64,000 nt of DNA from a virus, in the IMG/VR virus record IMGVR_UViG_3300027712_001108, positions 93,924 through 157,923 of that record; one strand, given 5' to 3'. Position numbers and translations under genes: made by a program. Under the pieces are notes generated by a model, which saw nothing but the letters and a program-made list of their open reading frames with translations, was not told where the DNA came from and did not search any database. Of the stretch, positions 17,605 through 54,138 are shown in pieces; the first letter of the stretch is position 1; each line of letters opens with the position of its first letter.

Positions 17605-17621
17605 CAATATAAAGGCATCAC

Positions 17622-33694: not shown

Positions 33695-34323
33695 TGTACT
33701 ATATCATTTATAAAATAACAAACCATATTAATGGACGTTATTACATAGGTCGTCATGCAACTGATAATTTAGATGATGGTTATATGGGTAGTGGTAAAGG
33801 TATAAAGAATGCCATTGCAAAGTATGGTCTTGATAATTTTACTAAAGATATCATTGCTACAGCAGAAACTGCCGTGGATCTATGGCAATTAGAAAAAGAT
33901 ATTGTTAACGAAACAGTAGTTAAAGATCCGTTATCTTATAATATGTCATATGGTGGAAAACATTATCTTGACGGTTTGAAAAAATATGACGAGCAAGCAT
34001 TTATTGAACATCAAAGACAAGCAGGATTGCGCGGCGGCAAAGTATCTATAGCTACTCGCAATTCAGCATGGCATGCAAAAGGCGGATCAGCATCTAGTCG
34101 TAAAAAAGCAGCACTATATAAGTATAAGCTTACTACATCATCTGGGGATGTATTTGATCTAGACGGTAATAGTCTTAAAGCAATGTGCAAAGAAAACAAT
34201 TGGAATTATGATACATTAATATGGACCAGGCATAAAGATCGACCAGTATTATCGGGCCCTCTTGCAGGATTCAGATTAGACCAAATAAGCAAGCCTGTGG
34301 GCAAAATACTCAAAGGCAAGTGA
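33694..34323 (+). mobile_element. GIY-YIG (Seg-like) homing endonuclease
   Basis: IIYKITNHINGRYYIGRH...YMGSG; its C-terminus duplicates that of the upstream gene. Confidence 0.85.
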
Positions 34324-35033
34324 TGCGCAGCAGCCAGTTTATAACAGACGCTGTTGCACCTCGTAATATAAATGCTGCAAGCGAAGAAGAACAGCTTGCC
34401 GCAGTTGCCGACGATTATGGTATAATACGTGACATTGATAATCCCAGTGAGGCAGTGCAGCTAGCAGCAATAAACGAATATCCAGGTTCTATAATAGCCA
34501 TAGACAATCCCACTGAGCGTGTTAAGATGGTGGCAATAGAAAACTCGCCACATCTTATCAAACACATACCAGACCCTAGCGAAGAATTGCAATTCGCAGC
34601 AGTTTCGCAAAACTACCGACTCATTCAACATATATACAGGCCTGCACCTGCTGTGCAACGTTATGTAGTAGAAGAAACGCCCGAGTACATACGTTACATT
34701 AACGCACCAACAGAAGAAGTTCAACTACTAGCAGTATCTGCATCTCCTTGGAATATACAAGATATATGGGAACCAACCGCAGCAGTACAAAAACTTGCAG
34801 TAATCAACAATGCTGCTACCATGTTAGAGATCAGATCTGATATTGATCGTGCAATATTCAATGACGGTAAAGTCAAACAATCTATCATACGATATATGTT
34901 GAAGCTGATAAAAGACTCTTATAAAGAACGTGTGGTACGATATATGAACATATTAGAATACTATGATGTCAAGTGGCCAGATTTAGATGTGATACGTGAC
35001 ACTGTGAACTCAATACCAGATGACGACTATTAA
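34323..35033 (+). CDS. ~23-aa tandem-repeat protein with C-terminal WPEL module
   Basis: Six (P)SE(A/E)VQLAAV-like repeats; ends VKWPDLDVIR. Confidence 0.75.
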   Translation: MRSSQFITDAVAPRNINAASEEEQLAAVADDYGIIRDIDNPSEAVQLAAINEYPGSIIAIDNPTERVKMVAIENSPHLIKHIPDPSEELQFAAVSQNYRLIQHIYRPAPAVQRYVVEETPEYIRYINAPTEEVQLLAVSASPWNIQDIWEPTAAVQKLAVINNAATMLEIRSDIDRAIFNDGKVKQSIIRYMLKLIKDSYKERVVRYMNILEYYDVKWPDLDVIRDTVNSIPDDDY

Positions 35034-35125
35034 TAGTAACATACAAAACCTGTATGTAACAACATGATCTATTAAGGACTGCTGTGTTGTGTAATTTCTT
35101 CCATAAATACCATGGGAGATTTGCA

Positions 35126-35590
35126 ATGAGACTAACAGACCTATACGGTGATCTTTTTGAGAACGCACCATCCATGGGCAAGATAGTGGCCGGATTGCCT
35201 CCCAGCTTTCAACATAGTATGCCTGCTACACATGCTTTTCCTGACATGGACAACTATTATGGATTTTATAGATTTGTTATAGCTATGGCAGGCGAATCGG
35301 GTGAACCGCACGAACCCGTCGATTATGAAATACCGTTACAAAGCAACATGCGAGACATACCCATTGCTGTTGCATATACAAAGCAAGAACACGAAATGAT
35401 ACACAGGACTGCCAGACGAATGGGCGCTAAACCAGATGAGCTTGCATATCATGGCAGTCAAGAACCACCTGACACATTTACAGTTAGTCCTGTTATAAAA
35501 TTTCAAATGAGTGAAGCTCAACAACGTAAGTTTAAAAGTCTATTGGCACTAAGCGAGGCAATGATTAATGCGTCTACTCGATCTGTTTGA
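35126..35590 (+). CDS. putative internal-head protein; paralog of the next gene's N-domain
   Basis: ATAAATA 35103; MRLTDLYGDLFE leader. Confidence 0.7.
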   Translation: MRLTDLYGDLFENAPSMGKIVAGLPPSFQHSMPATHAFPDMDNYYGFYRFVIAMAGESGEPHEPVDYEIPLQSNMRDIPIAVAYTKQEHEMIHRTARRMGAKPDELAYHGSQEPPDTFTVSPVIKFQMSEAQQRKFKSLLALSEAMINASTRSV

Positions 35591-37250
35591 AGAATTTGGA
35601 TCTGCAAAGATCGACCATGACATGGAAGCAACATTGCCGCCTGTTGCAATCATGCCAGAACTTAGCAACAGCAACAGCTATCTACAATATCGTTTTATGT
35701 CTGATATGGCTGCTGCAAGAGCAGTAGCAGCAGGCGAGGTTCAATTTAAGAAAATTGTACCATGGAGTCAGTATCTAACAGTAGTTGGGTATACACCAGA
35801 AGAACTTGAAACTGTGAGATTGGCATGTGAACAAAGTGGTATGAAGTTTGAAATGATCAATAACACAACAAGCCAAGAACCCAGTTGGGTTAATACTCTA
35901 AGCACTGTGATGCCGTTTCATATGAGTGAACACAAGCGTAGCAATAAAAAACTTGCAGGCTTATTTGAAAGTGACGGCAAGCAAGTACTAGTAATATACC
36001 CTGGGCATTTCCAGCCGTTACACCGTGGTCATCAAGCAGTATTTCAAAAACTACAAGAAGAATACGGTGACAATGTCTATATCGCAACCAGTGATAAAAC
36101 AAATAGTAATAATAGCCCATTTGACTACAATGACAAAACAGTTATGGCTCGTGCCGCCAATATACCACTTGATAAAGTTGTGCAGGTAAAATCCACTTAT
36201 AGCCCAGCTGAAATTACAAAATTATTCGATCCCAATAACACAGTGCTGATATTTGTAGTGGGTGTTAAGGATATGGAACTTGATCCGCGATTCAAGTTTG
36301 ATGATAAAAAAGACGGCACTAAATCATATTTGCAAAAGTTTAAAAACGAAGAAGTAGCTGAACCAATGAGCAAGCATGGTTATATCATGTCTGCACCTAC
36401 TGTTGAGTTTGAGTTGTTGGGCCAACCCGTCACCAGTGCTACACAAGTTAGAAAACTTTATGCTGCCAGCGACGATGCAAAGCGTGATAAAATACTGAAA
36501 GATCTCTATGGTAAACCCTCGTCTGAAATTAGAACCATGTTTGATCGCAAGTTGAGTCATTCGTCTACACAACTGAGCGAGTCTGTACATAGCGAAACTT
36601 TTATAGATAACATGCGCAAGTTTTTTGCAATTGCACAGCGTGACTTGGAACTGGATAGCTTGCCTAAGATAGTATGGACCAGTGACAGTACTGCCAAAGG
36701 CGAACGTCCTACCTTTGGTAAATTCCAAAACGACAATAACACAATCACTGTAAGCATTGTAAATCGCCATCCAATTGATATTATGCGCACATTGGCACAC
36801 GAACTTACACACTATAAACAACACATGACCAAAGGTTTAGATGCTAAAAGCGGCGATACAGGTAGTCCAGAAGAAGATGAAGCCAATGCCATTGCTGGAC
36901 AAATTATGCGTCACTTTGACGAAGAAAATCCAGACGCATTTGATATCAAGCCTGTTATAGCAGAACATATTGTTAGACACGGCAGTGGATATAGACTGCT
37001 TAGCAAAAAAACTGGCAAAAATCTCGGAGATTTCCCTACTAAAGCTGCGGCTGAAAAGCATGAACGTGAAGTACAATATTTCAAGCATGCATCTGAATCA
37101 GTCAATGAGGAAGTATGGGATCACCCTAATCCTGTTAAAAAGCATAAAAAGCTAAGCCCAGCTGACAAAGCTGCTGCCAAACGCAGAGCCGCAGCAGCAG
37201 GTAGAAAATATCCCAACATGGTAGATAATATCTGGGCTGCTAAACGATAA
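35568..37250 (+). CDS. putative polyprotein: N-domain + HIGH cytidylyltransferase-like + zincin (HExxH) + two small basic domains
   Basis: MRLLDLFE; YPGHFQPLHRGH, SATQVR; LAHELTH...EDEANA; domains bounded by LFE/LSE/IAE/VNE. Confidence 0.8.
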   Translation: MRLLDLFEEFGSAKIDHDMEATLPPVAIMPELSNSNSYLQYRFMSDMAAARAVAAGEVQFKKIVPWSQYLTVVGYTPEELETVRLACEQSGMKFEMINNTTSQEPSWVNTLSTVMPFHMSEHKRSNKKLAGLFESDGKQVLVIYPGHFQPLHRGHQAVFQKLQEEYGDNVYIATSDKTNSNNSPFDYNDKTVMARAANIPLDKVVQVKSTYSPAEITKLFDPNNTVLIFVVGVKDMELDPRFKFDDKKDGTKSYLQKFKNEEVAEPMSKHGYIMSAPTVEFELLGQPVTSATQVRKLYAASDDAKRDKILKDLYGKPSSEIRTMFDRKLSHSSTQLSESVHSETFIDNMRKFFAIAQRDLELDSLPKIVWTSDSTAKGERPTFGKFQNDNNTITVSIVNRHPIDIMRTLAHELTHYKQHMTKGLDAKSGDTGSPEEDEANAIAGQIMRHFDEENPDAFDIKPVIAEHIVRHGSGYRLLSKKTGKNLGDFPTKAAAEKHEREVQYFKHASESVNEEVWDHPNPVKKHKKLSPADKAAAKRRAAAAGRKYPNMVDNIWAAKR

Positions 37251-37281
37251 CTAATGCTGCAACAGCACAATGGAGAGTAAC

Positions 37282-37443
37282 GTGAATTTATCCAATGCAG
37301 ATAAAGAACATATTGCTCGCATATTGTACGAAACTGTCAATCCTCATGGAAATTGGCTAACTGTATTACCAATGGAACGCCGCAATTGGATAGCAGGCGC
37401 TGTTAAATTGTATACGCTGGATTACACACCTCACGTTCGTTAA
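37282..37443 (+). CDS. small hypothetical protein (53 aa)
   Basis: GGAG SD plus GTG; hand-translated. Confidence 0.4.
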   Translation: MNLSNADKEHIARILYETVNPHGNWLTVLPMERRNWIAGAVKLYTLDYTPHVR

Positions 37444-37454
37444 TAAATATCTAC

Positions 37455-40400
37455 ATGAAAATTATTAACATTATACCAAATACGCAATCTATATTTGAAG
37501 CAAAGGTTATCGGTGATTATCACCGAGGCATGTATAATGATGATGACGATGATGATGACGATAGCAGTTCATCGGGCTACAAACGTCGTATGCCACTCGG
37601 TAGTATACTGAATAAACATAAAAAATCTAGAAAAAAGAACGTTTCTTTACCCAGTAATACACCCCCAATCAGGTATGATTTGCCAGATTGGGACGCTGTG
37701 TTTGTTTTCACAGGGCATTTTAGAGATAGAATAGCAGAGCGCCATATCAATTATAATTTTATGGTAGATGAATTGTCTAACATTTTAGAAAAACACAAAG
37801 ATACTATTCAAAGTTTGCCAGATGATGAAGAATTCGTAATACGTGATAGATTCAGATTTAACAGTATAATTGTTGTACACCGTAATGATGATGGTAGTTC
37901 TACATATTATGCTGTAACTATGTTACCAGCCACCAAAGCACGTAGCACTTTTGAAAAATTCAAATATGTGTTTAACGAATCAGATGATAGACATCCAATT
38001 AAACTAGGTGATCTTGTTACTATGTCAAAAGGCATGGAAGATGCCGATTTTTGGATAGAATATCGCGGCAGTATTAATACAGTTGGTAAACCCAGTAAAG
38101 AATACGGTCCGCATAAACTTGGTATAAAAGTCACAGCAACTGATCGATTGGATCCAAAATATTTGTACTATATGTTTATGCATTTGCATAACCAAGGGCA
38201 GTTTGCAAAAATAGCCAACGGTACAACCAATCTAGTTAATATAAGAATACGCGACATTGCTAATATACCATTGGCAATGTCAGAATCTATTGCAGAAAAT
38301 GATGACGAACCGGTCAGGATAACGCTGCGAGGCTTTCCTAAAAGTCCAGACGATAGGCCGGAAGCAAGTGCTGCCAAGCGATGGATAGATCATCTGTATG
38401 CAACTCTGCCTACCAATCCGTTAAATCCAGACCAACTAGCACTGGTATACGGCGAAGGTGCAAATCAACAGATAGCACTGTTTGAGTTAGAACCAGTAAA
38501 GGGCGATCCAAAAACTGTCTATGTCAAGTGGTTCCAAGCATACCCAATGCGTCAGGGTGTAGGTACTAGAGCCATGAAAGAGTTGCAGGACATGGCAGGC
38601 AAAGCAGGTCTTAAACTGAACTTGATCAGCTGGAATCACGGTAAGGTACCAAGACGTGCGCTAGACAAGTTCTACAAAAAAGTGGGATTCAAACCCAGTT
38701 CTGGTAAACTAAGTGGTCTAACCTGGGATCCACTAAGTGAAACGGACGCTGTGACATTTGCAGGCAAAGATCCAAGAGAATTTACATCACCCAATGGTGG
38801 CAAAGCAGCAATGGTCATAGTTACTGCACAGGGATCGCGCTATCTTATAACAGATGATGGTATGGTGCTGCGCCATAAGTCTGCACATGCCAACACAGGC
38901 GGCGATGATCAAGGCCTTAAAAATTGGTCACAGCACATAGAATTTTATGATCCCAGTGAAAAAGTAGGCGGTACTACATTCCCGTTAGCAGTGTCTGCGT
39001 CTGTGAGTAAAAATCTACCAGTTGCATTAAGCAAAACACCCGATGGACTTCGTGCGCTGGCAATTTTAGACAATGGCAAGTGGCGTGTGGCTAAAATCAG
39101 TGATGTATTCAAACATGTTGCAAAAGATGATGTGCCGATTGCTGGCAAGTACAGCACAAGTCCCAAACTGCATTGGCATACCATGGATTACGATATCAAC
39201 AGCAAAGGTATGCTGTCTAGAGTACACCCTGGCAGTCCAGTGTCACACGGTGCTGTAATCAAGCATGCGGTAAACGAAAACGATGACGACTATGGTGTCG
39301 ATGACACACCCGACATAAAAGGTGCTAAAAAATGCATACAAGATGTCAAACGTGATTTTGATTCGTTGGGCGAATTGCCTGTTAATGGTTTACTAAGTGA
39401 TTTGCAATATCGTTACAATTTAGACAATGCAACTATCGGCAAGTTGATAGAACCTATTAAATCAGACATCGTTGTCTATATAAACACCATGTTAAATCAA
39501 GGCGGTCATCCTGTATACGGCGCAGTACGACGTATATATAAACTATTCCAATACGATATTGCGTGGCCGGAACTGTATAGTATACTGAATATGCATAGGC
39601 GGCATATTATAAAATACATGTTAGACAAAATTAAAGTCAATGACATTGGTGTAGTTCAAGAACAACTTCGACATTTAAAAGAAATGGGTATAGATTGGCC
39701 GGAACTAGTTACTATACGTAACAGCGTAGTACCCAACAACCTTATAGCAGAAGTAGGACCTGCCATTGACAATGTATACGGTCTTGGTGCAGTTGGCATA
39801 AGTGGTAATATCAACTATATGGGTCTTAGAGTATATGTAAAACCCAGTGTGTTTTTGAAACTTGCAGCCCGTCATCCTGATATGCAAACGGATTACATTC
39901 AGCAACACATGTCCGGCGGTAAAGCCATAGGTGCACCGTTTCTTGATATAAATATTCCCAGTGAATGGATAGATAAATCTTCTAGACATGATCAAGTGGC
40001 AGAAGGCGATTTGACCGAACCTGCCATGGTTATTGGGCATGAAGGTCGTCATCGCATGGCTGCTATCTTAAAAGACTATGGCGATGATCCCATTGAAACA
40101 CATTTGGTGTTTCGTGGACTGCGCCGCCGCCATATCACTGACAACATGATTGAACGACTGAACCAAGATATCGTCAATGAAAACGGTAGATTGTATCAAG
40201 GCTCGTGGTTTAATTTAACTGACGTAGTTACAGAAACTGATGATGACGATATTGATTTTGATACTAATTTTGTAGAACAGGACTTTTTAAAAGATCTACG
40301 TAACTATGGTATACTTGTTGCAATAACTGATATTTCAAATAAAGCCGAACGCGATGCCAGATTTTATCGCGATACTGCAATATATCATGACACTGTGATA

Positions 40401-40703
40401 GACCACAAATCATTAATAATCAGGGAACTACTAAAACGTATGAGTGCAGCAACAAGTCATACTGAGTTTCTTGTCATTGACGACTCTATTGCGTATCTAA
40501 CTAAAAAGCTAAAATTAAATTGGCCAGAGTTAAACATAATAAGACAGAGCTGCAAAGCTCATGTAGCAGCATTACCGGACGATCATCCAGGATACGACGA
40601 GTTAGATGAAAAATGGAGCAAAAAATACAAAAACAGTATAAACTGTTCCAATCCCAAGGGATTCAGTCAACGTGCGCATTGTGCTGGTAAGAAAAAAAGA
40701 TAA
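37455..40703 (+). CDS. putative polyprotein: RNase(BECR)-like, HsdS-TRD-like, GNAT, ParB-like, WPEL modules, small Cys domain
   Basis: ATAAATA 37443; HFRDRIAER; LDPKYLYY; RQGVGTRAM...FYKKVGF; EGRHRMAA; three WPEL motifs. Confidence 0.75.
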   Translation: MKIINIIPNTQSIFEAKVIGDYHRGMYNDDDDDDDDSSSSGYKRRMPLGSILNKHKKSRKKNVSLPSNTPPIRYDLPDWDAVFVFTGHFRDRIAERHINYNFMVDELSNILEKHKDTIQSLPDDEEFVIRDRFRFNSIIVVHRNDDGSSTYYAVTMLPATKARSTFEKFKYVFNESDDRHPIKLGDLVTMSKGMEDADFWIEYRGSINTVGKPSKEYGPHKLGIKVTATDRLDPKYLYYMFMHLHNQGQFAKIANGTTNLVNIRIRDIANIPLAMSESIAENDDEPVRITLRGFPKSPDDRPEASAAKRWIDHLYATLPTNPLNPDQLALVYGEGANQQIALFELEPVKGDPKTVYVKWFQAYPMRQGVGTRAMKELQDMAGKAGLKLNLISWNHGKVPRRALDKFYKKVGFKPSSGKLSGLTWDPLSETDAVTFAGKDPREFTSPNGGKAAMVIVTAQGSRYLITDDGMVLRHKSAHANTGGDDQGLKNWSQHIEFYDPSEKVGGTTFPLAVSASVSKNLPVALSKTPDGLRALAILDNGKWRVAKISDVFKHVAKDDVPIAGKYSTSPKLHWHTMDYDINSKGMLSRVHPGSPVSHGAVIKHAVNENDDDYGVDDTPDIKGAKKCIQDVKRDFDSLGELPVNGLLSDLQYRYNLDNATIGKLIEPIKSDIVVYINTMLNQGGHPVYGAVRRIYKLFQYDIAWPELYSILNMHRRHIIKYMLDKIKVNDIGVVQEQLRHLKEMGIDWPELVTIRNSVVPNNLIAEVGPAIDNVYGLGAVGISGNINYMGLRVYVKPSVFLKLAARHPDMQTDYIQQHMSGGKAIGAPFLDINIPSEWIDKSSRHDQVAEGDLTEPAMVIGHEGRHRMAAILKDYGDDPIETHLVFRGLRRRHITDNMIERLNQDIVNENGRLYQGSWFNLTDVVTETDDDDIDFDTNFVEQDFLKDLRNYGILVAITDISNKAERDARFYRDTAIYHDTVIDHKSLIIRELLKRMSAATSHTEFLVIDDSIAYLTKKLKLNWPELNIIRQSCKAHVAALPDDHPGYDELDEKWSKKYKNSINCSNPKGFSQRAHCAGKKKR

Positions 40704-40716
40704 AGGGAAAACAAAG

Positions 40717-41361: not shown

Positions 41362-41362
41362 T

Positions 41363-43481: not shown

Positions 43482-43519
43482 ATTATTGATACTATCAAAA
43501 TAGCAGAGTAAAATTCACT

Positions 43520-44362
43520 ATGACACAAGTACTATTCAGCATGCCATGCCATGAAAGCCATGAAGCAGTTAATATCAACATAGCCAATCTGCGACGATTC
43601 AACGGATTGCAGCATCAAATTTTGATACATGCAGACGCAGGTTGGAACGATTGGATGGAAGAACGTGTGGATTTTCCCAATGTCTACATCAATCCCATGC
43701 GTTATCGTACAAACCATGCACACAGCCAAATTGTCACACACATAAGCAACTACTTGAATGCAGTGGAGCGCGGTGTGGATTTTGATTATGTGGCAGTGTT
43801 TCATACCAGTGAGATGTTTATCAAACGAGGCATGCACGATCATATTGACAAATATGATCACAGCCTTTGGTTCACACCAGAAACACAACCGCATGATCTA
43901 AGTTGGCCACCCTTGGGCAAAGCAGTTGAAATGCGCATGTTCAAGGATCTATTTCCGGCTAATATACTCAGCAACTATCTGGGTAATTTGCTGGAAGGCA
44001 GTTGGTGGAAGCGCGAACTGTTTCAAGAAATTGTAGACTGGACACTGTATCACTATGATTTGGAAGATTTGCAATTGCCATGGGCAGCAGAAGAAGTGTT
44101 CTTTCCAACACTGAGTTGGCACTTGTCTGGTGGTAAAAACTTCACACACCCGTATTGTGCATTCCATCATGAAGATCATTTTATCAAAGATCGTATACTG
44201 ATAGATGGTATACGCAATGGCAAAGATGTGACATTCTGGCAACCTCAAAACTTTGTCTATGATTGGAAACCTGTGCCCAGCCAAGGCCTATTCTCTGTCA
44301 AACGCATCAGCAGAGATTTGGAAGATCCCATACGCATATATCTAAGTTGGCTCAAAGCCTAA
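43520..44362 (+). CDS. hypothetical protein, possibly glycosyltransferase-like
   Basis: Long ORF lacking the leader/linker pattern; functional guess is weak. Confidence 0.55.
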   Translation: MTQVLFSMPCHESHEAVNINIANLRRFNGLQHQILIHADAGWNDWMEERVDFPNVYINPMRYRTNHAHSQIVTHISNYLNAVERGVDFDYVAVFHTSEMFIKRGMHDHIDKYDHSLWFTPETQPHDLSWPPLGKAVEMRMFKDLFPANILSNYLGNLLEGSWWKRELFQEIVDWTLYHYDLEDLQLPWAAEEVFFPTLSWHLSGGKNFTHPYCAFHHEDHFIKDRILIDGIRNGKDVTFWQPQNFVYDWKPVPSQGLFSVKRISRDLEDPIRIYLSWLKA

Positions 44363-44459
44363 CACCATACGTTGATGTCTTCAATGTGAATTTCTTTAAT
44401 AAATACTGATAGACATTTTCAGCTTAGCTGCACACCTCTAATAAGGTAACGTATATACT

Positions 44460-45626
44460 ATGAGATTACTAGATATTTTTGAGTCGTTTTATTTGTTAGA
44501 AGACCTAGAAGGGCAAAAAGCTCAGCGTGGTCAGTTTCTCAAAGACAAGTATGGCAAAGATTTTAAAGGCTTGCCTGGCTATGGGCCGGACGACTTAGAC
44601 AAGCTGATTGAAAAGATCGGCGAAGTTGATCCCACTCGTAACGGTGCTTACATGCAGTGGATTGGACGATTGGCACTGACAAAGCCGGGTGAGAATCGCA
44701 CAGAAGATTTGGACCGTGTGGGACAGGACTTGCAGAACTTCGAACAGTTCAAAGCACGTATTGCCAACAAAGATATCAACGCTTACAAAAGCTTTAACCA
44801 GCTCTACGATATAACTGAGCCGTTTACTAGACCACAAGAAAAAACAAAAGACGACAAGGCCAAAGACAAAGAAGCGGCAGAAATTGCCAAGCTGAAAAAT
44901 GAAATCATCACAGTCTACAACGGCCCAGAAGGCTGGATACGTATTCCCAAAACACAAGCTGCTGCTACATACCTTGGCAAGGGTACACGTTGGTGTACTG
45001 CTGCTACTGGCAACAACATGTTCAACCATTATAACCGAGATGACAACCTATTTGTTGTACACGATAAAGCACAATCAAAAGTGTATAGAGAATTTATGGC
45101 GAACCCTGCCAATGCCGGTAAGCCAAAGCCTCACAACGGCATGTATCAGTTGCACATTGAAAGTGGTCAGTTTGCATCAGACGACGACCGCAATCAGGGT
45201 ACTAGCTCAGTGCCGCCGTGGGCAAGAACTCCTATACTTGAATATTACAAAGCCAACAATCCAAATCTATCATGGAAACAGATAATGACACTGAGTACAT
45301 TCGGCGATGAAAATCTCGCAGTTGGTACAAAGCATGAAGGTGTTATAAATCTGTTCAGCTTGTTTGATGCAATTGAACAACAAGATTATAAGAAAATACT
45401 GTACTGTGCAGCCAGCTTGCCTAATTTCAATATAGAATCTACACCAGACTATGCTGAAGAAATGGACAAATACAAAGCAAACTATATAAAAGACATGCTG
45501 ACCAATCTTAATAAAGGTCCAGACGGCTACGCAGATGTAAATGCCATGCTGTCGCAACTTGAAAGTTTTGGAATGCCATGGCCTGAACTAAAACCCATTC
45601 GCGCTAAATTAAACGCTGTAATTTAA
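44460..45626 (+). CDS. putative internal-head protein with GTRWCT motif and C-terminal WPEL module
   Basis: ATAAATA 44399; MRLLDIFESFYLLE; LGKGTRWCTA; GMPWPELKPIR. Confidence 0.75.
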   Translation: MRLLDIFESFYLLEDLEGQKAQRGQFLKDKYGKDFKGLPGYGPDDLDKLIEKIGEVDPTRNGAYMQWIGRLALTKPGENRTEDLDRVGQDLQNFEQFKARIANKDINAYKSFNQLYDITEPFTRPQEKTKDDKAKDKEAAEIAKLKNEIITVYNGPEGWIRIPKTQAAATYLGKGTRWCTAATGNNMFNHYNRDDNLFVVHDKAQSKVYREFMANPANAGKPKPHNGMYQLHIESGQFASDDDRNQGTSSVPPWARTPILEYYKANNPNLSWKQIMTLSTFGDENLAVGTKHEGVINLFSLFDAIEQQDYKKILYCAASLPNFNIESTPDYAEEMDKYKANYIKDMLTNLNKGPDGYADVNAMLSQLESFGMPWPELKPIRAKLNAVI

Positions 45627-45639
45627 TCGTACTGCAACA

Positions 45640-45666
45640 CGCCCTTGTATTAGTTTACAAGGGCGT
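45640..45666 (+). terminator. hairpin, probable terminator
   Basis: CGCCCTTGTA-ttagtt-TACAAGGGCG. Confidence 0.55.
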
Positions 45667-45720
45667 TGTCATGACATCTATATAGCGATAAATATCTTGC
45701 AATAACACAGGTATTTTCAC

Positions 45721-46194
45721 ATGCGACACTTTATATCATTAATAGAAAACATCAATGCTGAAAATTATACAGTACCGCAAGATGTAATAGATGCAATTGG
45801 AGAAACTCTAGATAATGGTTCTGCGTGGAGTTTGGAAAATGTGTACAGTTTAATGGATGAGCTTGACGTACCTGAAGATGCTACAACAGAAGTGCTTAAA
45901 CGTCTGTTGCCGAATATAAAAAATTGGCTAGACCTGATGATAAATGAATATACGTTGGTCGGTGCAATGGACAGCATAATGTATCTAATTGATGAAGAAG
46001 GCCTGGAAGAATTCAAACCTATTTTAATACAAACCATAAAACAAAATAGAAGCAAAGTAATTAAAGGGTTGCTGCGAAACCTGCAAGAAAGCGTTATGGG
46101 TATTGAACACGTTATTGATTATCTGATGTCGCTGGGATTTGAATGGACTGAATTACAAACGATATACGATAGTGTTCATACAGGTAGAAATTAA
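45721..46194 (+). CDS. WPEL-module protein (1 unit)
   Basis: ATAAATA 45688; MRHFISLIE; GFEWTELQTIYDS. Confidence 0.75.
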   Translation: MRHFISLIENINAENYTVPQDVIDAIGETLDNGSAWSLENVYSLMDELDVPEDATTEVLKRLLPNIKNWLDLMINEYTLVGAMDSIMYLIDEEGLEEFKPILIQTIKQNRSKVIKGLLRNLQESVMGIEHVIDYLMSLGFEWTELQTIYDSVHTGRN

Positions 46195-46197
46195 TCA

Positions 46198-48036
46198 ATG
46201 TCCACTACAAATATAGATACCAGCATAGACAAACTGCGAGACAGATTAGAAGCTATTAAAACAGCTGGCGAATACTATAAACTTACCCCAATATTATCTC
46301 AAATTTCTAGAGTAATAGACAGTAGGCGTGACAACACCGAAACCAATTTATATCTGTTTGAAAAACTTGATCAACTGCTGTTGCATTACAAACCAATAAT
46401 TCTAGAGTGGTTAAACGATCAATTTGAGCATGCTATATATGGCGGACTTGAAGGTCTAGAAATTTTAAAAAATGACATTGGACTTGATTGGCCAGAGTTA
46501 GGCAACTGGATTAATACGCATAAGCATACATTCGTTAAACAGCTTGTTTTAGGTATGAAGCAAAATGATTTCCATTCAGTTATATCTGACATTGAAGAAT
46601 TGCGTAGATTAAATGTGACTTGGCCAGAATTGGATATTTTTGAAAAACCTGCTCGCGAAGAACAACAACGCATAGACTTTCGTTATGTAGGCGATGACAA
46701 CGACGCCGATGATTATATAGATGATCACGATTTGCATGAGGATGATAGCGTGTCTCCTAAAATTAAAAAAACAGTACAATATTTGTTGAATACTGGCCAT
46801 GTGGATGTGTTTGTACGGCAGTTGGAAGATCAAGGACTAGACGATTCTAGAATCGTAGAAGTATTGTCACCGCATGCAAAACAAATAGTAGATAAAATAA
46901 CTGAAAACAAAAGAATGCCGCCTTATGCAGTATACGAACTGATATTGCTTTTACAACTTGGTGCAAAATGGCCTGTGTTATTAGATGCAATCTCAAATAA
47001 CAAGCATGCAGTTATCAAATATCTGTTAACCGACTTTAAAGAGAATTATGCAGATGACATCATGCTAGACAGTTTGAATAAAGATCTTGAACGCTTGAAA
47101 TCATTTGGTATAAACTGGAAAGAACTGGAGATACTTGAAACCAGCGTTGTCGATCAATTAAAAGATCGCGGGCTATACGATGATCGTACTCCATTGGCAG
47201 AAGCACAGCCTGTAATACCACCTAAAATAGTAAAACAGTTTGAACGTGAATACAGCAATATTCACCTGCGCGGTGTTACTGCTATATGGGAAACAGTGGT
47301 ACACTTGAAAGACATAGGTGCAACTGATCAACAAATTGCATCGCTGCTATCAGAACGTCGCGAGCAAGTTGCACAGGTAATTAGAAACAGCTTGCACAAT
47401 GAATCTCCTAAAAGTTTCAATCCCATTAACGAGGCCATGTACGCCATATACGAATTGCTAAGTGTAGGTATTAAATGGCCTTTGCTGTTACAGCTACTAG
47501 ACCGCTATAAAGACAAAGTCACAGCCTGGGCAATTGCAGGCGCTACTGATAGTCACTTTGGTTCAATTATTGCAGACAGATTAGTTGCCTTTGAAAAACT
47601 GGGATTTGACACTGCTGATATTAGACAGGAATTAAAAGCCAATGTATCGCCTGATTTATTAAAATCTCTATATAGGCAAGGGTTCGGTTGGCACGTACAA
47701 AATAAAATACAAACACTTGCTAAATTAAATCTCCTACCAATTGAATTCAATGACAGAGACATAGATGATATTTTATCTGTATTCATGGACTATGTTGCCA
47801 ATTACAGAATGTCTAAAGATGCATATAATGCATTGGTCGAGTTAATACCGCACGACATTGCTAAAATAAAACAGACGTTTGAGAAAAACAAAGCAACTAT
47901 AGTAAAATCCCTGCTTAAAAGCATAAAATCGCAATATTCACAGTCTATAGTAGACACATTGCATATACTACACAAGTTGAATATTAAATGGCCAGAAATG
48001 TCTGTTATTACAACTAGTCTGAAAGCAGGCAGATAA
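46198..48036 (+). CDS. WPEL-module repeat protein (6 motifs, 3 predicted units)
   Basis: WPEL, WPEL, WPVL, WKEL, WPLL, WPEM; LHE and LAE linkers. Confidence 0.8.
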   Translation: MSTTNIDTSIDKLRDRLEAIKTAGEYYKLTPILSQISRVIDSRRDNTETNLYLFEKLDQLLLHYKPIILEWLNDQFEHAIYGGLEGLEILKNDIGLDWPELGNWINTHKHTFVKQLVLGMKQNDFHSVISDIEELRRLNVTWPELDIFEKPAREEQQRIDFRYVGDDNDADDYIDDHDLHEDDSVSPKIKKTVQYLLNTGHVDVFVRQLEDQGLDDSRIVEVLSPHAKQIVDKITENKRMPPYAVYELILLLQLGAKWPVLLDAISNNKHAVIKYLLTDFKENYADDIMLDSLNKDLERLKSFGINWKELEILETSVVDQLKDRGLYDDRTPLAEAQPVIPPKIVKQFEREYSNIHLRGVTAIWETVVHLKDIGATDQQIASLLSERREQVAQVIRNSLHNESPKSFNPINEAMYAIYELLSVGIKWPLLLQLLDRYKDKVTAWAIAGATDSHFGSIIADRLVAFEKLGFDTADIRQELKANVSPDLLKSLYRQGFGWHVQNKIQTLAKLNLLPIEFNDRDIDDILSVFMDYVANYRMSKDAYNALVELIPHDIAKIKQTFEKNKATIVKSLLKSIKSQYSQSIVDTLHILHKLNIKWPEMSVITTSLKAGR

Positions 48037-49670
48037 TGCAGTATTATAATGAAGAAATATACAGATCACTGATAGAGGCTGTACGTCAGCGCCAGTACAA
48101 AGAAGTACCGTTTAAATTACGTAGACTTGGTGAAAATACAGAACCTTTTACACCTAGAAGCGGTATTGATCTGCTTAATAAAAACAAAACTGGCTGCATT
48201 CGTGGTATATTGTACATATATAAAAATCAAGATGATTATGGGTTAACCAACAATGATTTCCAAAATGCAGTAAAAGGTGCACGTAAAATAGGATTGGCCT
48301 GGCCTGAATTGGATATACTTGAAAACAGTATTGGCACTGATACAGTCACCGAAGCTGCAAAACAACTCACCGGTGACGACATAGCCAAAGATATCGAAGA
48401 CATATTCAGCGACACCGATTCAGGTTTTAGTTCTTCTAAACGTATGATATTGCAACGTCTGATATTATCCTATTCCGCATTGTTAGATGCAGTTAAAATA
48501 AAAGACATATCCAGCATAACAGCAGCGTTGACTAGATTAAAGCAACGTATTCTTCGAGACATGCTGTCTAATATGCAGCATGGCGATACCAAGGTGGATA
48601 TGCCCATTTATATTAAAACACTACAGCAGTTTGGTATCAATTGGCCGGAGTTATCTATTATAAACGACAGCACAGATAAAAAACTCAAAGAAACGCTGCG
48701 CATACATCCTCGGGATCCCAGAGATCGTATGCTGGATAGATTAGAAGACATATTCACTGATCCCGGCACAGATGTATTTGACCGAATCACTGAATTGGAT
48801 ATAGCCAGATCCATTTTACAACGTATCAGTCAAGACGATGTTGATGCAATATTGGCAAACTATAAAACCCACATTATAAAAGATACATTGAAACATTTGA
48901 TGCATGGTGCAGTAGATGTTGATGTACCTATCTTTTTAAGAACACTGCAAGGACTGGGTGCAAACTGGCGTGAATTAGACATAATCGAAAAAAGTGTTGG
49001 CGGCAATAGCCCGCAGTTGGATGAAGCACCCCGTACATCCGATGAAATAATTCGTGACGAATTTGACTATAATATATTTTATGGCATTGCAGCATTGCGC
49101 ATTTATAGCCGTCAACTTGCAGAATTTCCCGAATATGAACAGCTAGTGAATACACATAAAGCCAAGCTGATACGCTTGCTGTTGGAGTTGTGCAAAGACA
49201 ACGAGTTCGGTGTGGCCAAATTCAGAGCAGAGGATTTGCAAACTGCGGGTGTAGATTGGCCAGAGTTGGACATCATTATAGACAGCGCCACACATGAACT
49301 TGACAAGTTCTTTGGCATTGACTCAGCAGACCAGCTAGCAGAAGGAATTAGTCATGCTGCCAGATATAACATGAGTGGTGCGCTATCTAGCATAGAAGAC
49401 GACGAACCACGCGAAATGGTATTGTTTTTAAGCAATGCTGCATATGAAGATTCGTTGCCAACTATTGCTAAAAAACTGGCTCCACATAAACAGTTTATTG
49501 TACGAGCATTGCTGGACTTTTTAAGAGATGAAGAAGATGCAGCAGAGTCAGTTGATACTGTTAGGGATTGCCTAACAGTATTGGATAAAATAGGATTCTC
49601 CAGCCCAGAATTGTCTATACTACGAAATAGTTTAAACGTACCAAGCAAAGGTGATCAAAATGGCCAATGA
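48036..49670 (+). CDS. WPEL-module repeat protein (5 units of ~110 aa)
   Basis: Each unit ends G-h-x-WPEL-x-II-x-x-S; the first four are followed by VTE/LKE/LDE/LAE. Confidence 0.8.
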   Translation: MQYYNEEIYRSLIEAVRQRQYKEVPFKLRRLGENTEPFTPRSGIDLLNKNKTGCIRGILYIYKNQDDYGLTNNDFQNAVKGARKIGLAWPELDILENSIGTDTVTEAAKQLTGDDIAKDIEDIFSDTDSGFSSSKRMILQRLILSYSALLDAVKIKDISSITAALTRLKQRILRDMLSNMQHGDTKVDMPIYIKTLQQFGINWPELSIINDSTDKKLKETLRIHPRDPRDRMLDRLEDIFTDPGTDVFDRITELDIARSILQRISQDDVDAILANYKTHIIKDTLKHLMHGAVDVDVPIFLRTLQGLGANWRELDIIEKSVGGNSPQLDEAPRTSDEIIRDEFDYNIFYGIAALRIYSRQLAEFPEYEQLVNTHKAKLIRLLLELCKDNEFGVAKFRAEDLQTAGVDWPELDIIIDSATHELDKFFGIDSADQLAEGISHAARYNMSGALSSIEDDEPREMVLFLSNAAYEDSLPTIAKKLAPHKQFIVRALLDFLRDEEDAAESVDTVRDCLTVLDKIGFSSPELSILRNSLNVPSKGDQNGQ

Positions 49671-50844
49671 TGCAGATCAATTAATTGCCAGCCGAGTTGC
49701 AGGCATAATGATGAATGAACCACTGGCACTAAGAGCATTGATTCACCGACTAGAAACACCACCCTATGAATGGCCAGCAGACGATATATTAGCAGTGGTA
49801 CAAGATCACAAGACTGCTATTTTAAAATACATAGATAGAAAATTCAGGGTAGGTAATATATCATTGCCCATCAATGACATTAAAAAACTAATACACATTG
49901 ATGCGCCATGGCCAGAATTAAAAGACATGGTCATCAAATACAAATTTTCTATTGTAAAAAAACTGTTAGAGATGCTGCGAGCCGGCGATCATAGAACAGC
50001 TACAGATCCAATTAACACACTAACGTCGTTAAACATGCGCTGGCCGGAACTTGTTGTTATGCAAAAGAGTATAGATGAAAGAAATAAACAGCTACGCGAA
50101 TCATACACATTAGATGACCACGAAATGGCACAATACAAAGCTGATTTATTGTCTGACATCCACGGCAAGCATTATATTGCAGTATTAGATGCTGTACCCG
50201 ATATTACACAGTATACAAATTTAGGCAATGTAGATCGTATAACTCGCACATTGGAAGAACATAAACACGGTATAATGCGTGCATTGTTAGAAATGATAAA
50301 ATTGGGCAGCAGTAACGAATTGTCATTGTATGGCCCTACTCTTTTAAATGGATTTGCGAAACTGGGAATTGACTGGCCTGACCTTGACGTAATACGAACA
50401 TCAATTGCCAAGACTCCGCTGAAAGAGTTGAGTGAAAATCGCGACCATGCCAAATGGATAGCAGATGAATATAAAGACAGCATAATAATAGGTGTTTTGC
50501 GAAACGACATGGATTTGCTATTGCAATCACTGGCAGAATTCGGATGGACAGATTCTCAAGATAGAGGCGATGTCACAGATTTAACTACGCTTATGACGAA
50601 TCACAAGCAGAGAATAATGAAAGGCATACGCGAGTACATGCTGGAGTTGGACTCGGACGGCATATGCTACATTATGCCTCAAATATTAGATGGATTAGAT
50701 AATGCTGGTATAAAGTGGCCGGATTTACAAGTACTTGGCCAGAGCGTTGACCTTATACAACAAGAAAAAGACGAAGACAATGTAGAGTTGAATGAACGCC
50801 GAAAGTCTGTAAATAACATAACGTACAGGAATCCCAGGGCATGA
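49660..50844 (+). CDS. WPEL-module repeat protein (3 units)
   Basis: WPEL, WPEL, WPDL, WPDL; LRE/LSE/LNE linkers. Confidence 0.8.
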   Translation: MANDADQLIASRVAGIMMNEPLALRALIHRLETPPYEWPADDILAVVQDHKTAILKYIDRKFRVGNISLPINDIKKLIHIDAPWPELKDMVIKYKFSIVKKLLEMLRAGDHRTATDPINTLTSLNMRWPELVVMQKSIDERNKQLRESYTLDDHEMAQYKADLLSDIHGKHYIAVLDAVPDITQYTNLGNVDRITRTLEEHKHGIMRALLEMIKLGSSNELSLYGPTLLNGFAKLGIDWPDLDVIRTSIAKTPLKELSENRDHAKWIADEYKDSIIIGVLRNDMDLLLQSLAEFGWTDSQDRGDVTDLTTLMTNHKQRIMKGIREYMLELDSDGICYIMPQILDGLDNAGIKWPDLQVLGQSVDLIQQEKDEDNVELNERRKSVNNITYRNPRA

Positions 50845-52490
50845 TACCACGTGAAATCAGATACACTCTGACAATGTTCTACGAGGACATTGAGCAGGGT
50901 AGTTATATCGACGCTGTGGAGTGTCTAAATGAATTGTACCACTATAAGGTATATGAAACTGCTGAACGCAATAGAATCAATGCAGCATTGGTAGCCCATA
51001 AAAATGGTATCGTGAAACGACTGCTGCGCTATATGCGACGTTATCCATCAGATGAAGTTGCACACTTTATACCCAATACCATTGATGCATTGCGAGCATT
51101 TGATATTGATTGGCCTGATTTAAACGTTATTGCACGGTCTGTACCTAAAACGAAACCAGTGGCAGAAGCACTGGCATCGCCGCTGGGTAATATTGTATTT
51201 GGCATGCAAAATGCACTGCGACAGGGCAACGACCGTGTGGTAGCACACCGCGTAATTGATCTATGGCGTGGTAGTACATTGGAAAAACAGCGTGCAAGCG
51301 ACATGCTAGCAGATGTTGATAATTTGGTATTGAGTTATATAGAACGTCAGCTTGGATCTGATGATATGTTTGCAGTACAAGATGGATTAAATCTTGTACA
51401 AGTATTACCGCCGTCAGAAGACTGGGCAGATATAACAACGCTTCTCAACAAATACAAAAAAAACATAATAAAGTATTTGTTAAAATGCATGCAACATGGA
51501 GAATTTGATATCGTAGAATATCGCGTACCCATGTTACATGAATGGGGTATACACTGGCCCGACTTGGAAGTTTTAAAAATCAGTGCAGATGAAATGGAAC
51601 AGAACGACAGCAATGATTCCCAGCTGGATGAAGCAGATAGCCGCGCTGACTTTTCAACTGTGCATAGAAACAGATCAGACGCAGACGGCGGTCATAGATT
51701 TCTATTAAATGCAGATGAGTATGTGGAACATATCAGAGCTCTATTGCAAAATGGATATAAAAATAATGAAGCGGTGTCAGAGTTGTCCACTGTTGGCCGT
51801 AGACGCCGGGGCGCCATCAAAGACTGGCCTGAATTAGCTGCGGTAATCAACGAATATAAAAAACCATTATTAGATATTATATTGTTGCATTTTAATAAAG
51901 AACATTTCAGTCATCGACTTTTGGATTTTGCAGGTGCATTATACGCTATCGGGGTCCATTGGCCTGAAATTAAACCCATGATAGAAAAAAACAAATATAA
52001 GATCATGCAGATATTGCGTGGACTAATCGAAGACGAATCTGACATAGAGTTTATAGAATCTCAAATACATGCATTAAAAAGTTACGGTATTAAATGGCCT
52101 GATTTAGACATCATCGCCAAAAGTATTGCGCCCGATGATTTAGCAGAGGACGAAGATCAAGCAGCCGCGGTGCCAGACAATTCTATACGTTCAATGATAA
52201 TGGATATGCTAGAACGCGATGGGCTGGGTATTGCATTATATCATATAGAAGAATGGAATCTTGATGTTGAAAAGTTTCCAGAATTAGTAGACTTTCTTAA
52301 CAAGCGCAAACATCAATATATGAAAATCTTGATAAATGATCTAAAAGATGGACGCGACTGGAAGTATGGCGCAGTTGAACAATATCTAAGACGTCTAGAA
52401 AAGTCAAAAATAAATTGGCCCGAATTATCAATCATACGCGACAGCTTAAATACAGTACAACAGCAGGAAGACGATACCAATGACAATTGA
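50841..52490 (+). CDS. WPEL-module repeat protein (6 motifs, 4 units)
   Basis: WPDL x3, WPEL x2, WPEI; VAE/LDE/LAE linkers. Confidence 0.8.
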   Translation: MIPREIRYTLTMFYEDIEQGSYIDAVECLNELYHYKVYETAERNRINAALVAHKNGIVKRLLRYMRRYPSDEVAHFIPNTIDALRAFDIDWPDLNVIARSVPKTKPVAEALASPLGNIVFGMQNALRQGNDRVVAHRVIDLWRGSTLEKQRASDMLADVDNLVLSYIERQLGSDDMFAVQDGLNLVQVLPPSEDWADITTLLNKYKKNIIKYLLKCMQHGEFDIVEYRVPMLHEWGIHWPDLEVLKISADEMEQNDSNDSQLDEADSRADFSTVHRNRSDADGGHRFLLNADEYVEHIRALLQNGYKNNEAVSELSTVGRRRRGAIKDWPELAAVINEYKKPLLDIILLHFNKEHFSHRLLDFAGALYAIGVHWPEIKPMIEKNKYKIMQILRGLIEDESDIEFIESQIHALKSYGIKWPDLDIIAKSIAPDDLAEDEDQAAAVPDNSIRSMIMDMLERDGLGIALYHIEEWNLDVEKFPELVDFLNKRKHQYMKILINDLKDGRDWKYGAVEQYLRRLEKSKINWPELSIIRDSLNTVQQQEDDTNDN

Positions 52491-53721
52491 CCATTTGGAT
52501 TTATTAGAAGACCTTGGCAATCTTGCACAGCTCAATGCAGGTCCGCTGATAAATGTGCTTAAACAATATCCCGGACCTAGTGGTATTGGTCACGTCGAGA
52601 AGGCATTTCACCGAGAATGGGATATGGCAATTGGCAGTAACAGTCCTATACTTGATATCGGCAATCTCAAAGATGGTATAAAGACGCTTCGCAAAGCATT
52701 TAAAACACACGAAGCTGCTGCGGCATTTGTAGTATACATTGGCGGCAAAGCTGCTATGTTTGGCACAACAGACAGTTATACACTTGCTGGCGGTTCACGC
52801 GAAGGCAGATTAGCATATGATTTAAGACCCTGGGAAGCTGCTGTAAAAGCTGCACATGAACGAGAACATGGAACCAAGCCGTCTTGGTCAAGACCCAGTA
52901 CGCCCGCTCTCAGTACTGCTAAAGATGTAGAGTCGCGCAATTACAGTCATCCTGAAGACAAGTGGAATAACCCAGTAATGGTTACCAGACACTATGCAGG
53001 CGACATGGTCAGTACCGGTACGCTGTCTGGATTGTTTACTATTATGCAGAATATTGCTAAAGACACCGGAGAGCCTCTCACAGGCAAGCTGGTACTGCGC
53101 GATATGAAAGCCAGAGAAACTAGACGTGCAAGGCAGTTAACTAGACAAGAAATTAATGCTGGGGTGAAAGATCTCAAAACTAGATTGGCGATTTATAAGA
53201 ACAGCAAAAAGCCCAGTGTCGATACTGTTGAAGATTTCATTGCAATGAGTCTTAATAAGCCAGGTAGTATTGTACAGTTTGCAGGACGCCCATATCGACT
53301 AACTGCTAGCACCTACGACAAAATTGATCCGTTGAGTTTGTTAAAAGGCAAATCATTTACCACCAGGTATGCAACCAACGAACCTGGTGGGTATAATAGT
53401 ATGGAGTTGACATACAGGTTTGATGCAGATACTAACCAACTGTTACCTATATCAGCAACGTGGAGCGATAACACTGATCCTAATAAACCACGTAGTCAAA
53501 CAGCAGTGCTGGATCCCAAGGGTTATCTACAAAACGCATTGGGTATTAAAAAGCTAGAAAAGCCATATGTTATACCTAAACTATTGGAAAAAATAAAAAA
53601 CCAGCAATTCAAAGATGCATTACTGTATGCAACTGCATTGGAAAAATTAGGAATAGAATGGCCTGAAATCTCGCTTATCAAAGACAGTGCGCAACACGAA
53701 GTTGATTTAAAAAATAAATGA
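52480..53721 (+). CDS. hypothetical protein with single C-terminal WPEL module
   Basis: N-terminal LDLLE; ends LGIEWPEISLIKDS. Confidence 0.75.
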   Translation: MTIDHLDLLEDLGNLAQLNAGPLINVLKQYPGPSGIGHVEKAFHREWDMAIGSNSPILDIGNLKDGIKTLRKAFKTHEAAAAFVVYIGGKAAMFGTTDSYTLAGGSREGRLAYDLRPWEAAVKAAHEREHGTKPSWSRPSTPALSTAKDVESRNYSHPEDKWNNPVMVTRHYAGDMVSTGTLSGLFTIMQNIAKDTGEPLTGKLVLRDMKARETRRARQLTRQEINAGVKDLKTRLAIYKNSKKPSVDTVEDFIAMSLNKPGSIVQFAGRPYRLTASTYDKIDPLSLLKGKSFTTRYATNEPGGYNSMELTYRFDADTNQLLPISATWSDNTDPNKPRSQTAVLDPKGYLQNALGIKKLEKPYVIPKLLEKIKNQQFKDALLYATALEKLGIEWPEISLIKDSAQHEVDLKNK

Positions 53722-54131
53722 AATCCAGTGAATTCATAAACAAATCTATCAGGGATATTACAACAGACGTTGTGGCTATGTCGGTGAGCATTGGTAACTC
53801 TGTAACGGAATCTGATATAAGTCCTGAACTGTTATCACGTATGAGCAAGGCAGTTAAAAGCAAATTCTCAAAAGGCGATTATGCAGACGCACTTCGCTAC
53901 ATGGGCGATTACGGATTAACATATGCAGCAGCACCAAGTGAATTACAAGACCTTATCAACAGTAGACGAATGCAGATCATCAAAGATCTACTTGATATTG
54001 CAAGACATAATCCAGATGCATGGCGTGTATATAGATTGATGTCCTATGTAAAACTAGTAGAACTAGGTTGGCCTGAAATTGACACACTGTTCAACAGTGC
54101 CAAAGCTGCAAAAGAAGACGAGCGCATTTAA
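53718..54131 (+). CDS. WPEL-module protein (1 unit)
   Basis: MKSSEFI leader, VTE site, LGWPEIDTLFNS. Confidence 0.75.
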   Translation: MKSSEFINKSIRDITTDVVAMSVSIGNSVTESDISPELLSRMSKAVKSKFSKGDYADALRYMGDYGLTYAAAPSELQDLINSRRMQIIKDLLDIARHNPDAWRVYRLMSYVKLVELGWPEIDTLFNSAKAAKEDERI

Positions 54132-54138
54132 ATACAAT

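Follow-up and report, generated by a model that had tools for sequence, protein, structure and literature searches.

The DNA analysed here, referred to as the window, is a stretch of 64,000 nucleotides that forms the final 64 kb (positions 93,924 to 157,923) of a 157,923-bp IMG/VR virus contig, IMGVR_UViG_3300027712_001108 (the home contig). Between positions 34323 and 54131, ten open reading frames (ORFs) carry one to six copies of a 48-residue helical module, the WPEL module. Most copies are followed either by a stop codon or by a [LIVM]-x-E motif, which is treated here as a predicted cleavage site, and several of the proteins open with a short leader ending in the same type of motif. The ORFs are named by their start positions, modules are given in nucleotide positions and predicted sites in amino acids (aa). 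The starts 34323 and 49660 used in an earlier, sequence-only reading of this DNA are the first ATGs, while the ORF listing opens at GTG 34320 and GTG 49651.

34323–35033, plus strand: DUF4116-like 23-aa repeats (phrog_17056, 3e-36) and one C-terminal module (34866–35006), with the stop 8 aa later.
37455–40703, plus strand: 1082-aa polyprotein candidate; leader ending I-F-E at aa 15; modules 39447–39590 and 39585–39728 (tandem pair) and 40395–40553; predicted sites after aa 766 (I-A-E) and aa 1052 (L-D-E), then a 30-aa basic, Cys-containing tail.
44460–45626, plus strand: GTRWCT-domain protein (phrog_17056, phrog_28193); 8-aa leader ending I-F-E; terminal module 45462–45605.
45721–46194, plus strand: 157-aa single unit; 9-aa leader ending L-I-E; terminal module 46036–46176, a W-T-E-L variant.
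46198–48036, plus strand: 612-aa protein with four modules supported by a profile hidden Markov model (HMM), 46378–46518, 46510–46653, 46990–47148 and 47878–48021, and two degenerate W-P-x-L-L sites; predicted sites after aa 181 and 335.
48036–49670, plus strand: 544-aa string of five units of ~110 aa; modules 48174–48332, 48528–48674, 48852–48998, 49146–49289 and 49476–49634; predicted sites after aa 14, 106, 219, 330 and 436.
49651–50844, plus strand: 397-aa protein, first ATG at 49660; modules 49798–49929 and 49930–50073 (tandem), 50251–50406 and 50593–50748; predicted sites after aa 150, 259 and 382.
50841–52490, plus strand: 549-aa protein with six modules, 50988–51143, 51444–51587, 51705–51851, 51846–51986, 51981–52127 and 52296–52448; conserved predicted sites after aa 109, 264 and 436, in linkers with a low predicted local distance difference test (pLDDT) score.
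52480–53721, plus strand: 413-aa basic protein (isoelectric point, pI, 9.3); 10-aa leader ending L-L-E; terminal module 53551–53691.
53718–54131, plus strand: 137-aa single-unit protein; terminal module 53955–54101.

The WPEL module is a real, undescribed family. The HMM was built from a seed alignment of 23 strict W-P-[ED]-[LIM] sequences and converged in one round. On the home contig, it identified 30 module domains in 12 ORFs, all with an independent E-value (i-E) of 2.4e-7 or lower, and the next-best six-frame ORF match has an i-E of 0.31. Based on this gap, the family boundary is sharp and chance is excluded. Twenty-seven copies lie inside the ten ORFs listed above (respectively 1, 3, 1, 1, 4, 5, 4, 6, 1 and 1). 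The other three were found by the HMM on the minus strand upstream of the window, about 76 to 80 kb before it (positions of the home contig):

13789–15036, minus strand: two modules, an L-T-E site and DUF4116-like repeats in one protein.
17452–17745, minus strand: one module.

The consensus of the alignment (A1) reads K-x-x-I-x-K-x-L-L ... L-x-x-x-G-x-x-W-P-E-L-x-x-I-x-x-S, with the Trp present in at least 90% of the copies, and recovers the pattern reported by the sequence-only reading (K-x-x-I-I-K/R-x-L-L...W-P-E/D-L). The copy numbers of that reading (1, 3, 1, 1, 6, 5, 4, 6, 1 and 1) stand for nine ORFs; ORF 46198 has four copies instead of six, its two surplus W-P-x-L-L sites being degenerate at best (i-E 8.2, or no match). 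Pfam and PHROG scans of the ten ORFs left the module covered by no family, and a PDB sequence search with the module returned only designed helical repeats, weakly (5e-5 and weaker), in agreement with the earlier statement that it is not a named domain. As had also been noticed, the module is appended to unrelated N-terminal parts: ORFs 34323, 44460 (GTRWCT), 52480 and 37455 carry other or large non-module regions, and the N-terminal domain of ORF 52480 (~350 aa) has no family assigned to it. DUF4116/phrog_17056 repeats co-occur with the module in ORF 34323 and in the protein at 13789–15036, but they are shorter and different, and the WPEL module does not match DUF4116.

A profile of the 27 copies was compared to 1.84 billion cluster representatives, yielding 519 proteins at E ≤ 1e-3, of which 95 at E ≤ 1e-30, with up to 16 module copies in one protein. 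Every family member looked up is metagenomic and has no functional name, the sole label being ‘hypothetical protein’. Several lie on contigs of 313–519 kb. A Pfam search of 16 database relatives with long module-free parts gave only DUF5661, a weak DUF4116 and one marginal match.

The home contig has a CheckV completeness of ~30%, suggesting a genome near 0.5 Mb. DNA runs containing more than half of the window's sampled words carry a freshwater-metagenome label. The DNA polymerase B of the window (56240–59005) is 49–51% identical to those of Sinorhizobium phage Phosso (469 kb) and Agrobacterium phage Atu_ph07 (490 kb), and 42–44% identical to those of Rak2-type jumbo phages. A syntenic relative, IMGVR_UViG_3300017917_001342 (hereafter G001), has a complete genome of 518,643 bp, bounded by direct terminal repeats, and 38 module matches.

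The position of the module relative to [LIVM]-x-E is strongly non-random. Among the 27 window copies, eight finish 5–13 aa short of a stop codon, 14 are internal with an [LIVM]-x-E beginning 5–28 aa past the module, and five are directly tandem with a W-to-W spacing of 44–45 aa. The eight copies near a stop and the 14 with the motif correspond to the ~22 copies that the sequence-only reading had described as followed by LxE or a stop. The same holds family-wide and against control motifs, based on 148 database proteins (close relatives of ORF 50841 left out), in which 544 modules are internal and not directly tandem. The 20 aa past each module were considered, and expected values are the motif rates in non-module sequence:

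[LIVM]-x-E: 91% of 544 modules, 40% expected.
[LIVM]-x-D: 30%, 42% expected.
E-x-[LIVM]: 38%, 35% expected.
[LIVM]-E: 22%, 28% expected.
[AGS]-x-E: 24%, 20% expected.
[LIVM]-x-[KR]: 39%, 52% expected.

None of the five control motifs is enriched past these modules. The [LIVM]-x-E rate is highest at offsets 5–9 (0.119 per position, compared to a background of 0.025), and the Glu of internal copies lies a median of 10 aa past the module. At the sites, P3 is most often L, followed by I and V (P3 being fixed to L/I/V/M by the search pattern), and P1' is mostly S, A, D, N, T or G. For the 127 terminal modules, the tail to the stop has a median of 8 aa and holds the motif in only eight cases; no more than 20 aa separate the last module from the C-terminus in 136 of 160 proteins. 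Stop and motif thus stand at about the same place relative to the module, as expected if the motif creates a C-terminus. This equivalence is hard to explain with the motif as part of the fold. The earlier claim that the module caps the predicted products is borne out in this sense, since units delimited by [LIVM]-x-E or a stop have it at their C-terminal end.

Comparison of ORF 50841 with its orthologs points in the same direction. In 12 orthologs the three linker sites retain [LIV] and E, with variation in the middle residue and the flanks. More distant orthologs, including that of G001, have a basic, Cys-containing peptide of ~40 aa inserted at linker 1 and a ~185-aa domain inserted at linker 2, both flanked on each side by their own [LIV]-x-E. 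In the database protein P0003, an ORF 49651-like and an ORF 50841-like protein are fused in frame, with an L-N-E site kept before the junction. The units therefore behave as motif-delimited cassettes, and from one relative to another ORF boundaries move at unit ends. Mean pairwise identity among the ORF 50841 orthologs is 0.70 for the N-terminal parts, 0.67 for the modules and 0.55 for the linkers. Since the N-terminal parts are as conserved as the modules, the diversity lies between paralogs and does not reflect fast turnover between orthologs.

The ~185-aa insert is found in P0009, P0010 and P0011 (approximately residues 262–445), between two [LIV]-x-E sites past the second module, and belongs to no Pfam family. 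The sole Pfam match is a marginal one to DHquinase_I in P0011, at 472–582, mostly downstream of this insert. The 30-aa tail of ORF 37455 (40611–40700) is basic, has two Cys and lies directly past L-D-E; the same peptide is the site-bounded insert in P0009–P0011, and it has the look of a small cassette in its own right. The block has further short basic domains at C-termini, namely DUF6321 (ORF 40672), phrog_34011 (ORF 35568) and phrog_7595 (ORF 28568).

An AlphaFold2 model of ORF 50841, made with 12 homologs, is all-helical with four confident domains. The linkers at residues 103–112, 256–289 and 431–445 have a pLDDT below 50, and each holds a site. The predicted template-modelling score (pTM) of 0.33 for the model means that the domains are not packed against each other in a fixed way. 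When modelled alone, the three tandem copies (residues 288–432) reach a pLDDT of 89 and a pTM of 0.83, with three helices per 44–45-aa repeat. Structural neighbours are importins, transportin, beta-catenin, designed armadillo/helical repeat proteins and similar solenoids. None of the scores goes beyond what helical repeats give in general: VIA Z ≤ 7.5, which is below the tool's meaningful level, Foldseek E ≥ 0.16 for the domain, and Atlas TM 0.46–0.65 to ARM, HEAT and RAP clusters. An ESM Atlas feature search with ORF 48036 gave no usable match, and Pfam ARM/HEAT families have no match at E ≤ 0.1 in the ten ORFs. Based on these models, the module would act like an ARM/HEAT-type repeat, kinship with the ARM or HEAT families not being established. 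ARM and HEAT repeats span about 40–47 aa, with two or three helices each, and stack into a solenoid. The module shares with them the 44–45-aa period, the three helices per repeat and, in the model, a compact solenoid in tandem copies. Unlike them, WPEL arrays have one to three recognisable repeats with disordered linkers between, and the W-P-E-L turn signature is specific to the family. The HMM matches no characterised repeat family, and arrays so short, with disordered linkers between them, are not a continuous solenoid.

Family-wide, the spacing of successive modules falls into clusters of 44–49, 100–125 and 150–170 aa, with a mode of 44. Units of n ~45-aa repeats and one ~20-aa linker would give such spacings, provided that the last repeat alone stays recognisable. 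According to hhalign against the module profile, a degenerate earlier repeat is present in one of the four N-terminal parts of ORF 50841, weakly (P 7e-4, probability 26%), the rest not being significant. A homodimer co-fold of the three-repeat domain scored 0.00, which weighs neither for nor against self-association. As judged from the models, a small ARM/HEAT-like all-helical domain most likely ends in the module, which would be its best-conserved repeat together with the capping helix. In our own reading of A1 together with the secondary structure, its conserved positions are mostly hydrophobic or helix-capping, which suggests a fold rather than a shared binding surface.

A protease of the matching specificity class is found in the relative. 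At ~407.6 kb, G001 encodes a Peptidase_S77 protein (88.8 bits), the family of T4 gp21. It lies within a T4-like gene order at 403.6–409.6 kb: the gene for a very acidic protein of 345 aa comes first, followed by those for the S77 protease, for a coiled-coil scaffold-like protein of 402 aa and, last, for a Gp23-family capsid protein (310 bits). The HK97-type Peptidase_S78 is absent from both the home contig and G001. In the G001 capsid protein, L-F-E-S occurs ~40 residues ahead of the conserved G-V-Q-P-M motif, which we take to match roughly the position at which T4 gp23 is matured. Downstream of the capsid gene lie a terminator, TATAAATA, a 101-aa ORF and a 183-aa ORF. The latter has a leader resembling a capsid targeting sequence (CTS), with its first nine residues almost identical to those of window ORF 45721. 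The cleavage motif of T4 is L/I-x-E. The ‘LIE-9’ site in PMC9026906 is consistent with it. Both gp21-type and giant-phage prohead proteases cut C-terminal to Glu, and T4 head proteins carry N-terminal CTSs of 10–20 aa that are removed by gp21, with residues 8 and 10 as processing determinants; the CTS-bearing internal proteins vary widely among T4-like phages (PMC9026906, PMC5694885). A T4 CTS whose P1 Glu is changed to Asp is no longer processed (PMC9026906).

Leaders of this kind are enriched here. The first [LIVM]-x-E ends at residue 5–9 in 44 of 143 family proteins (16 expected), and M-[KR]-[LI]-x-[DE]-[LIV]-F-E is a recurrent leader pattern. On the home contig, a site ending at residue 7–15 is present in 8 of 18 block genes compared to 19 of 143 other genes (Fisher p 0.003). 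Clear leaders are seen in ORFs 37455, 44460, 45721, 48036 and 52480, and also in the module-free block genes 35568 and 41363.

Three operon starts in the block are preceded by ATAAATA motifs:

37443–37449, plus strand: ATAAATA, T4 late-promoter-like, 12 nt ahead of the ATG of ORF 37455.
44399–44405: ATAAATA-like motif, 61 nt ahead of ORF 44460.
45688–45694: ATAAATA-like motif, 33 nt ahead of ORF 45721.

The strict T4 late promoter TATAAATA shows no enrichment in the window, with three matches compared to 4.5 expected. There are 35 ATAAATA matches in 158 kb, many of them 8–36 nt from ORF starts. ATAAATA-N4-5-ATG opens long ORFs at 37443, 3250, 22931 and 35103 of the window and at 52381, 72335, 90029 and other positions of the home contig. 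Judged from the sequence, this arrangement suggests T4-late-type promoters giving leaderless or near-leaderless mRNAs.

The explanation that we favour, and to which we assign about an even chance, is that the WPEL block is an expanded set of internal head proteins like the internal proteins (IPs) of T4, made as polyproteins. Around 30 ARM/HEAT-like domains per genome would be strung together, and an N-terminal leader of ~8–15 aa ending in [LIV]-x-E would carry the precursor into the prohead core, as a T4 CTS does. Processing by the phage's gp21-type prohead protease would follow, on the C-terminal side of the leader Glu and at the [LIVM]-x-E ~10 aa past each unit. The released units would each end a few residues past a WPEL module, and module-free cassettes would be released likewise. 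Like the T4 IP and Alt proteins, the products would be retained inside the capsid and then injected together with the DNA. They are predicted to be mostly acidic (pI 4.2–6) and roughly 10–32 kDa in size, the majority 11–20 kDa, with a few large enzyme-like or repeat-bearing products of 43–85 kDa. The data themselves show the module family, the repeat fold, the site/stop rule, the site conservation, the cassette insertions, the boundary fusion and the relative's gp21/gp22/gp23-type head genes; the cleavage, packaging and ejection of the units and their role in the host are inferred.

In comparison with T4 IPI, IPII, IPIII and Alt, several of the WPEL proteins have a similar short leader ending in [LI]-x-E, and the gp21-family protease encoded by G001 would likewise cut after Glu. 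The variable gene set away from the head cluster and the heterogeneous cargo are also alike (PMC9026906, PMC5694885). Unlike the T4 proteins, WPEL units are concatenated with internal sites, number ~30–38 per genome, share an ARM/HEAT-like C-terminal module and are mostly acidic. No PHROG or Pfam internal-head-protein family matches the ten ORFs, and the likeness to T4 IPs is one of mechanism, not of descent. Multiple cleavage has precedents in phiKZ, 201phi2-1 and SPN3US, where paralogous head-internal proteins are cut at several sites after Glu by gp175 or gp245 (PMC9026906, PMC5694885, PMC10052503). However, the motifs cut by these proteases are S/A/G-x-E or A-x-E, and past WPEL modules [AGS]-x-E shows no enrichment; the propeptides are long instead of 8–15-aa leaders, there is no common domain, and by polymerase the phage lineage is different. 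The mechanism class is already known, both from CTSs processed by gp21-type proteases and from giant-phage paralog families that are cleaved several times. What is new is the module as a domain family, the strict grammar of module, linker and site, and a scale of ~30–38 units per genome. In the literature, no paper was found on the module or on polyprotein-organised head-internal proteins of T4-related huge phages.

Several observations weigh against internal head proteins made as polyproteins. The block adjoins DNA polymerase B and nucleotide-metabolism genes, module genes on other contigs have replication or metabolism neighbours as well, and in G001 the block is ~190 kb away from the head genes. 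Peptidase_S77 was not found in the home contig, which represents ~30% of the genome, so the protease is known from the relative alone. The leader is absent or unconvincing in ORFs 34323, 46198, 49651, 50841 and 53718, and T4 IPII and IPIII are basic, unlike the acidic predicted WPEL products. Late timing is only a hint, since an HNH endonuclease gene and an NAD-salvage gene have ATAAATA upstream as well. No cultured phage with the module was found: against 50,697 GenBank phage records, megablast of window positions 44000–54200 and tblastn of ORF 50841 returned nothing, and the module profile detected no module in Sinorhizobium phage Phosso, which by its polymerase is the closest cultured relative. 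The conserved [LIVM]-x-E might conceivably serve for binding, as a short linear motif, instead of marking a cut.

Some of these points are what would be expected of uncut intracellular proteins, in which ARM/HEAT-like beads on flexible acidic linkers serve as scaffolds or binders and [LIVM]-x-E is a linker motif with another role. The genes lie amid replication and metabolism genes and far from the head genes, the modelled fold class is typical of protein-binding scaffolds, and cleavage itself is deduced from sequence. Such proteins would not account for the stop codons that take the place of the motif at an equal distance, for the insertion of whole cassettes together with their flanking motifs, for the agreement between the motif and the specificity class of the clade's S77 protease or for the enrichment of T4-CTS-like leaders; we regard them as unlikely. 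A different role for the module was put forward by the sequence-only reading, namely a C-terminal address tag. As a universal tag this proposal finds no support, since module-free cassettes and block genes carry the same leaders and flanking sites, so that the module is not the common denominator. The same two observations count against the wider idea that the module itself is the signal, either as a docking handle for capsid, core or portal or as a protease exosite presenting the next site. Terminal copies would have no site to present, and the hydrophobic and helix-capping nature of the conserved positions suggests a fold. Single copies are nevertheless appended to unrelated N-terminal domains, the module is the most recognisable part of every unit, and it keeps a constant ~10 aa to the site or stop, as would a protease-positioning element. 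A signal function is improbable on balance, and a protease-positioning role may still apply because the module-to-site distance is so constant.

The units might also be parts of the assembly core, or inner-body-like parts, of a very large capsid, cut at maturation like T4 gp22 or the phiKZ inner-body paralogs and then mostly lost or kept for structure rather than serving as effectors. A ~0.5-Mb capsid needs a large core, and the proteins are acidic, all-helical, predicted to be multiply cleavable and present as numerous paralogs, as are the phiKZ inner-body proteins (PMC9026906). Yet G001 already has the 402-aa coiled-coil scaffold-like gene between its protease and capsid genes, and phiKZ-type [AGS]-x-E is not enriched. 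In addition, the units are well-folded and distinct in the model and each is conserved among orthologs, and enzyme-like or unrelated domains are fused into the same proteins. A core or inner-body role is accordingly given a quite low probability. If, on the other hand, the units are injected internal head proteins, the block might be a modular ‘cut-here’ system, in which any domain placed between an [LIV]-x-E of the short leader or linker type and a WPEL cap becomes released capsid cargo and the ~30 units form a library of injected binders, each against a different host protein, for instance of a defence system. This extended reading is rather unlikely, and is put forward tentatively. A diversified library of binders or decoys had been the second suggestion of the sequence-only reading; the modelled ARM/HEAT-like fold would suit binding, but the N-terminal parts of ORF 50841 show no rapid turnover among orthologs.

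Upstream of the first WPEL ORF, a GIY-YIG homing endonuclease gene (phrog_314, 7.6e-36) is located at 33694–34323, with overlapping stop and start codons at both gene junctions. It is preceded by a gene at 28568–33694 for a 1708-aa protein with an N-terminal lysin/transglycosylase-like region (phrog_1047, phrog_10341, weak) and a leader ending L-A-E after an internal Met. This protein is plausibly an ejected cell-wall-degrading protein heading the WPEL block. Short contigs from a lake metatranscriptome are 99–100% identical to the window at 44464–45226, 46045–46273, 51876–52072 and 52973–53737 (ORFs 44460, 46198, 50841 and 52480). They possibly reflect expression of WPEL genes; DNA carry-over may also account for them, so they were not counted as expression. 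In one freshwater DNA run, a contig joins 48273 (ORF 48036 module) to 49878 (ORF 49651 module), skipping 1,604 nt. The joint, with a shorter side of 22 letters, may be a recombinant deletion variant or an assembly chimera between module copies.

Almost all that is known of phages of ~0.5 Mb comes from metagenomes, and their genes mostly lack an assigned function. If the favoured reading is true, ~20 kb per genome in a freshwater clade would gain an assembly and delivery logic consisting of leader, unit and cut site, and a new domain family with 519 cluster representatives would be defined. The T4 paradigm of capsid targeting and gp21 processing would extend from single small proteins to multi-unit polyproteins. 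The reading can be tested cheaply, by looking for semi-tryptic peptides ending at the named Glu residues and by in vitro cleavage with the clade's S77 protease. The small, stable, diversified helical units, together with the leader and site grammar, could serve cargo packaging in engineered phage capsids. A library of injected binders, if true, would far exceed the handful of internal proteins of T4 in size, and this pre-packaged arsenal would be organised differently.

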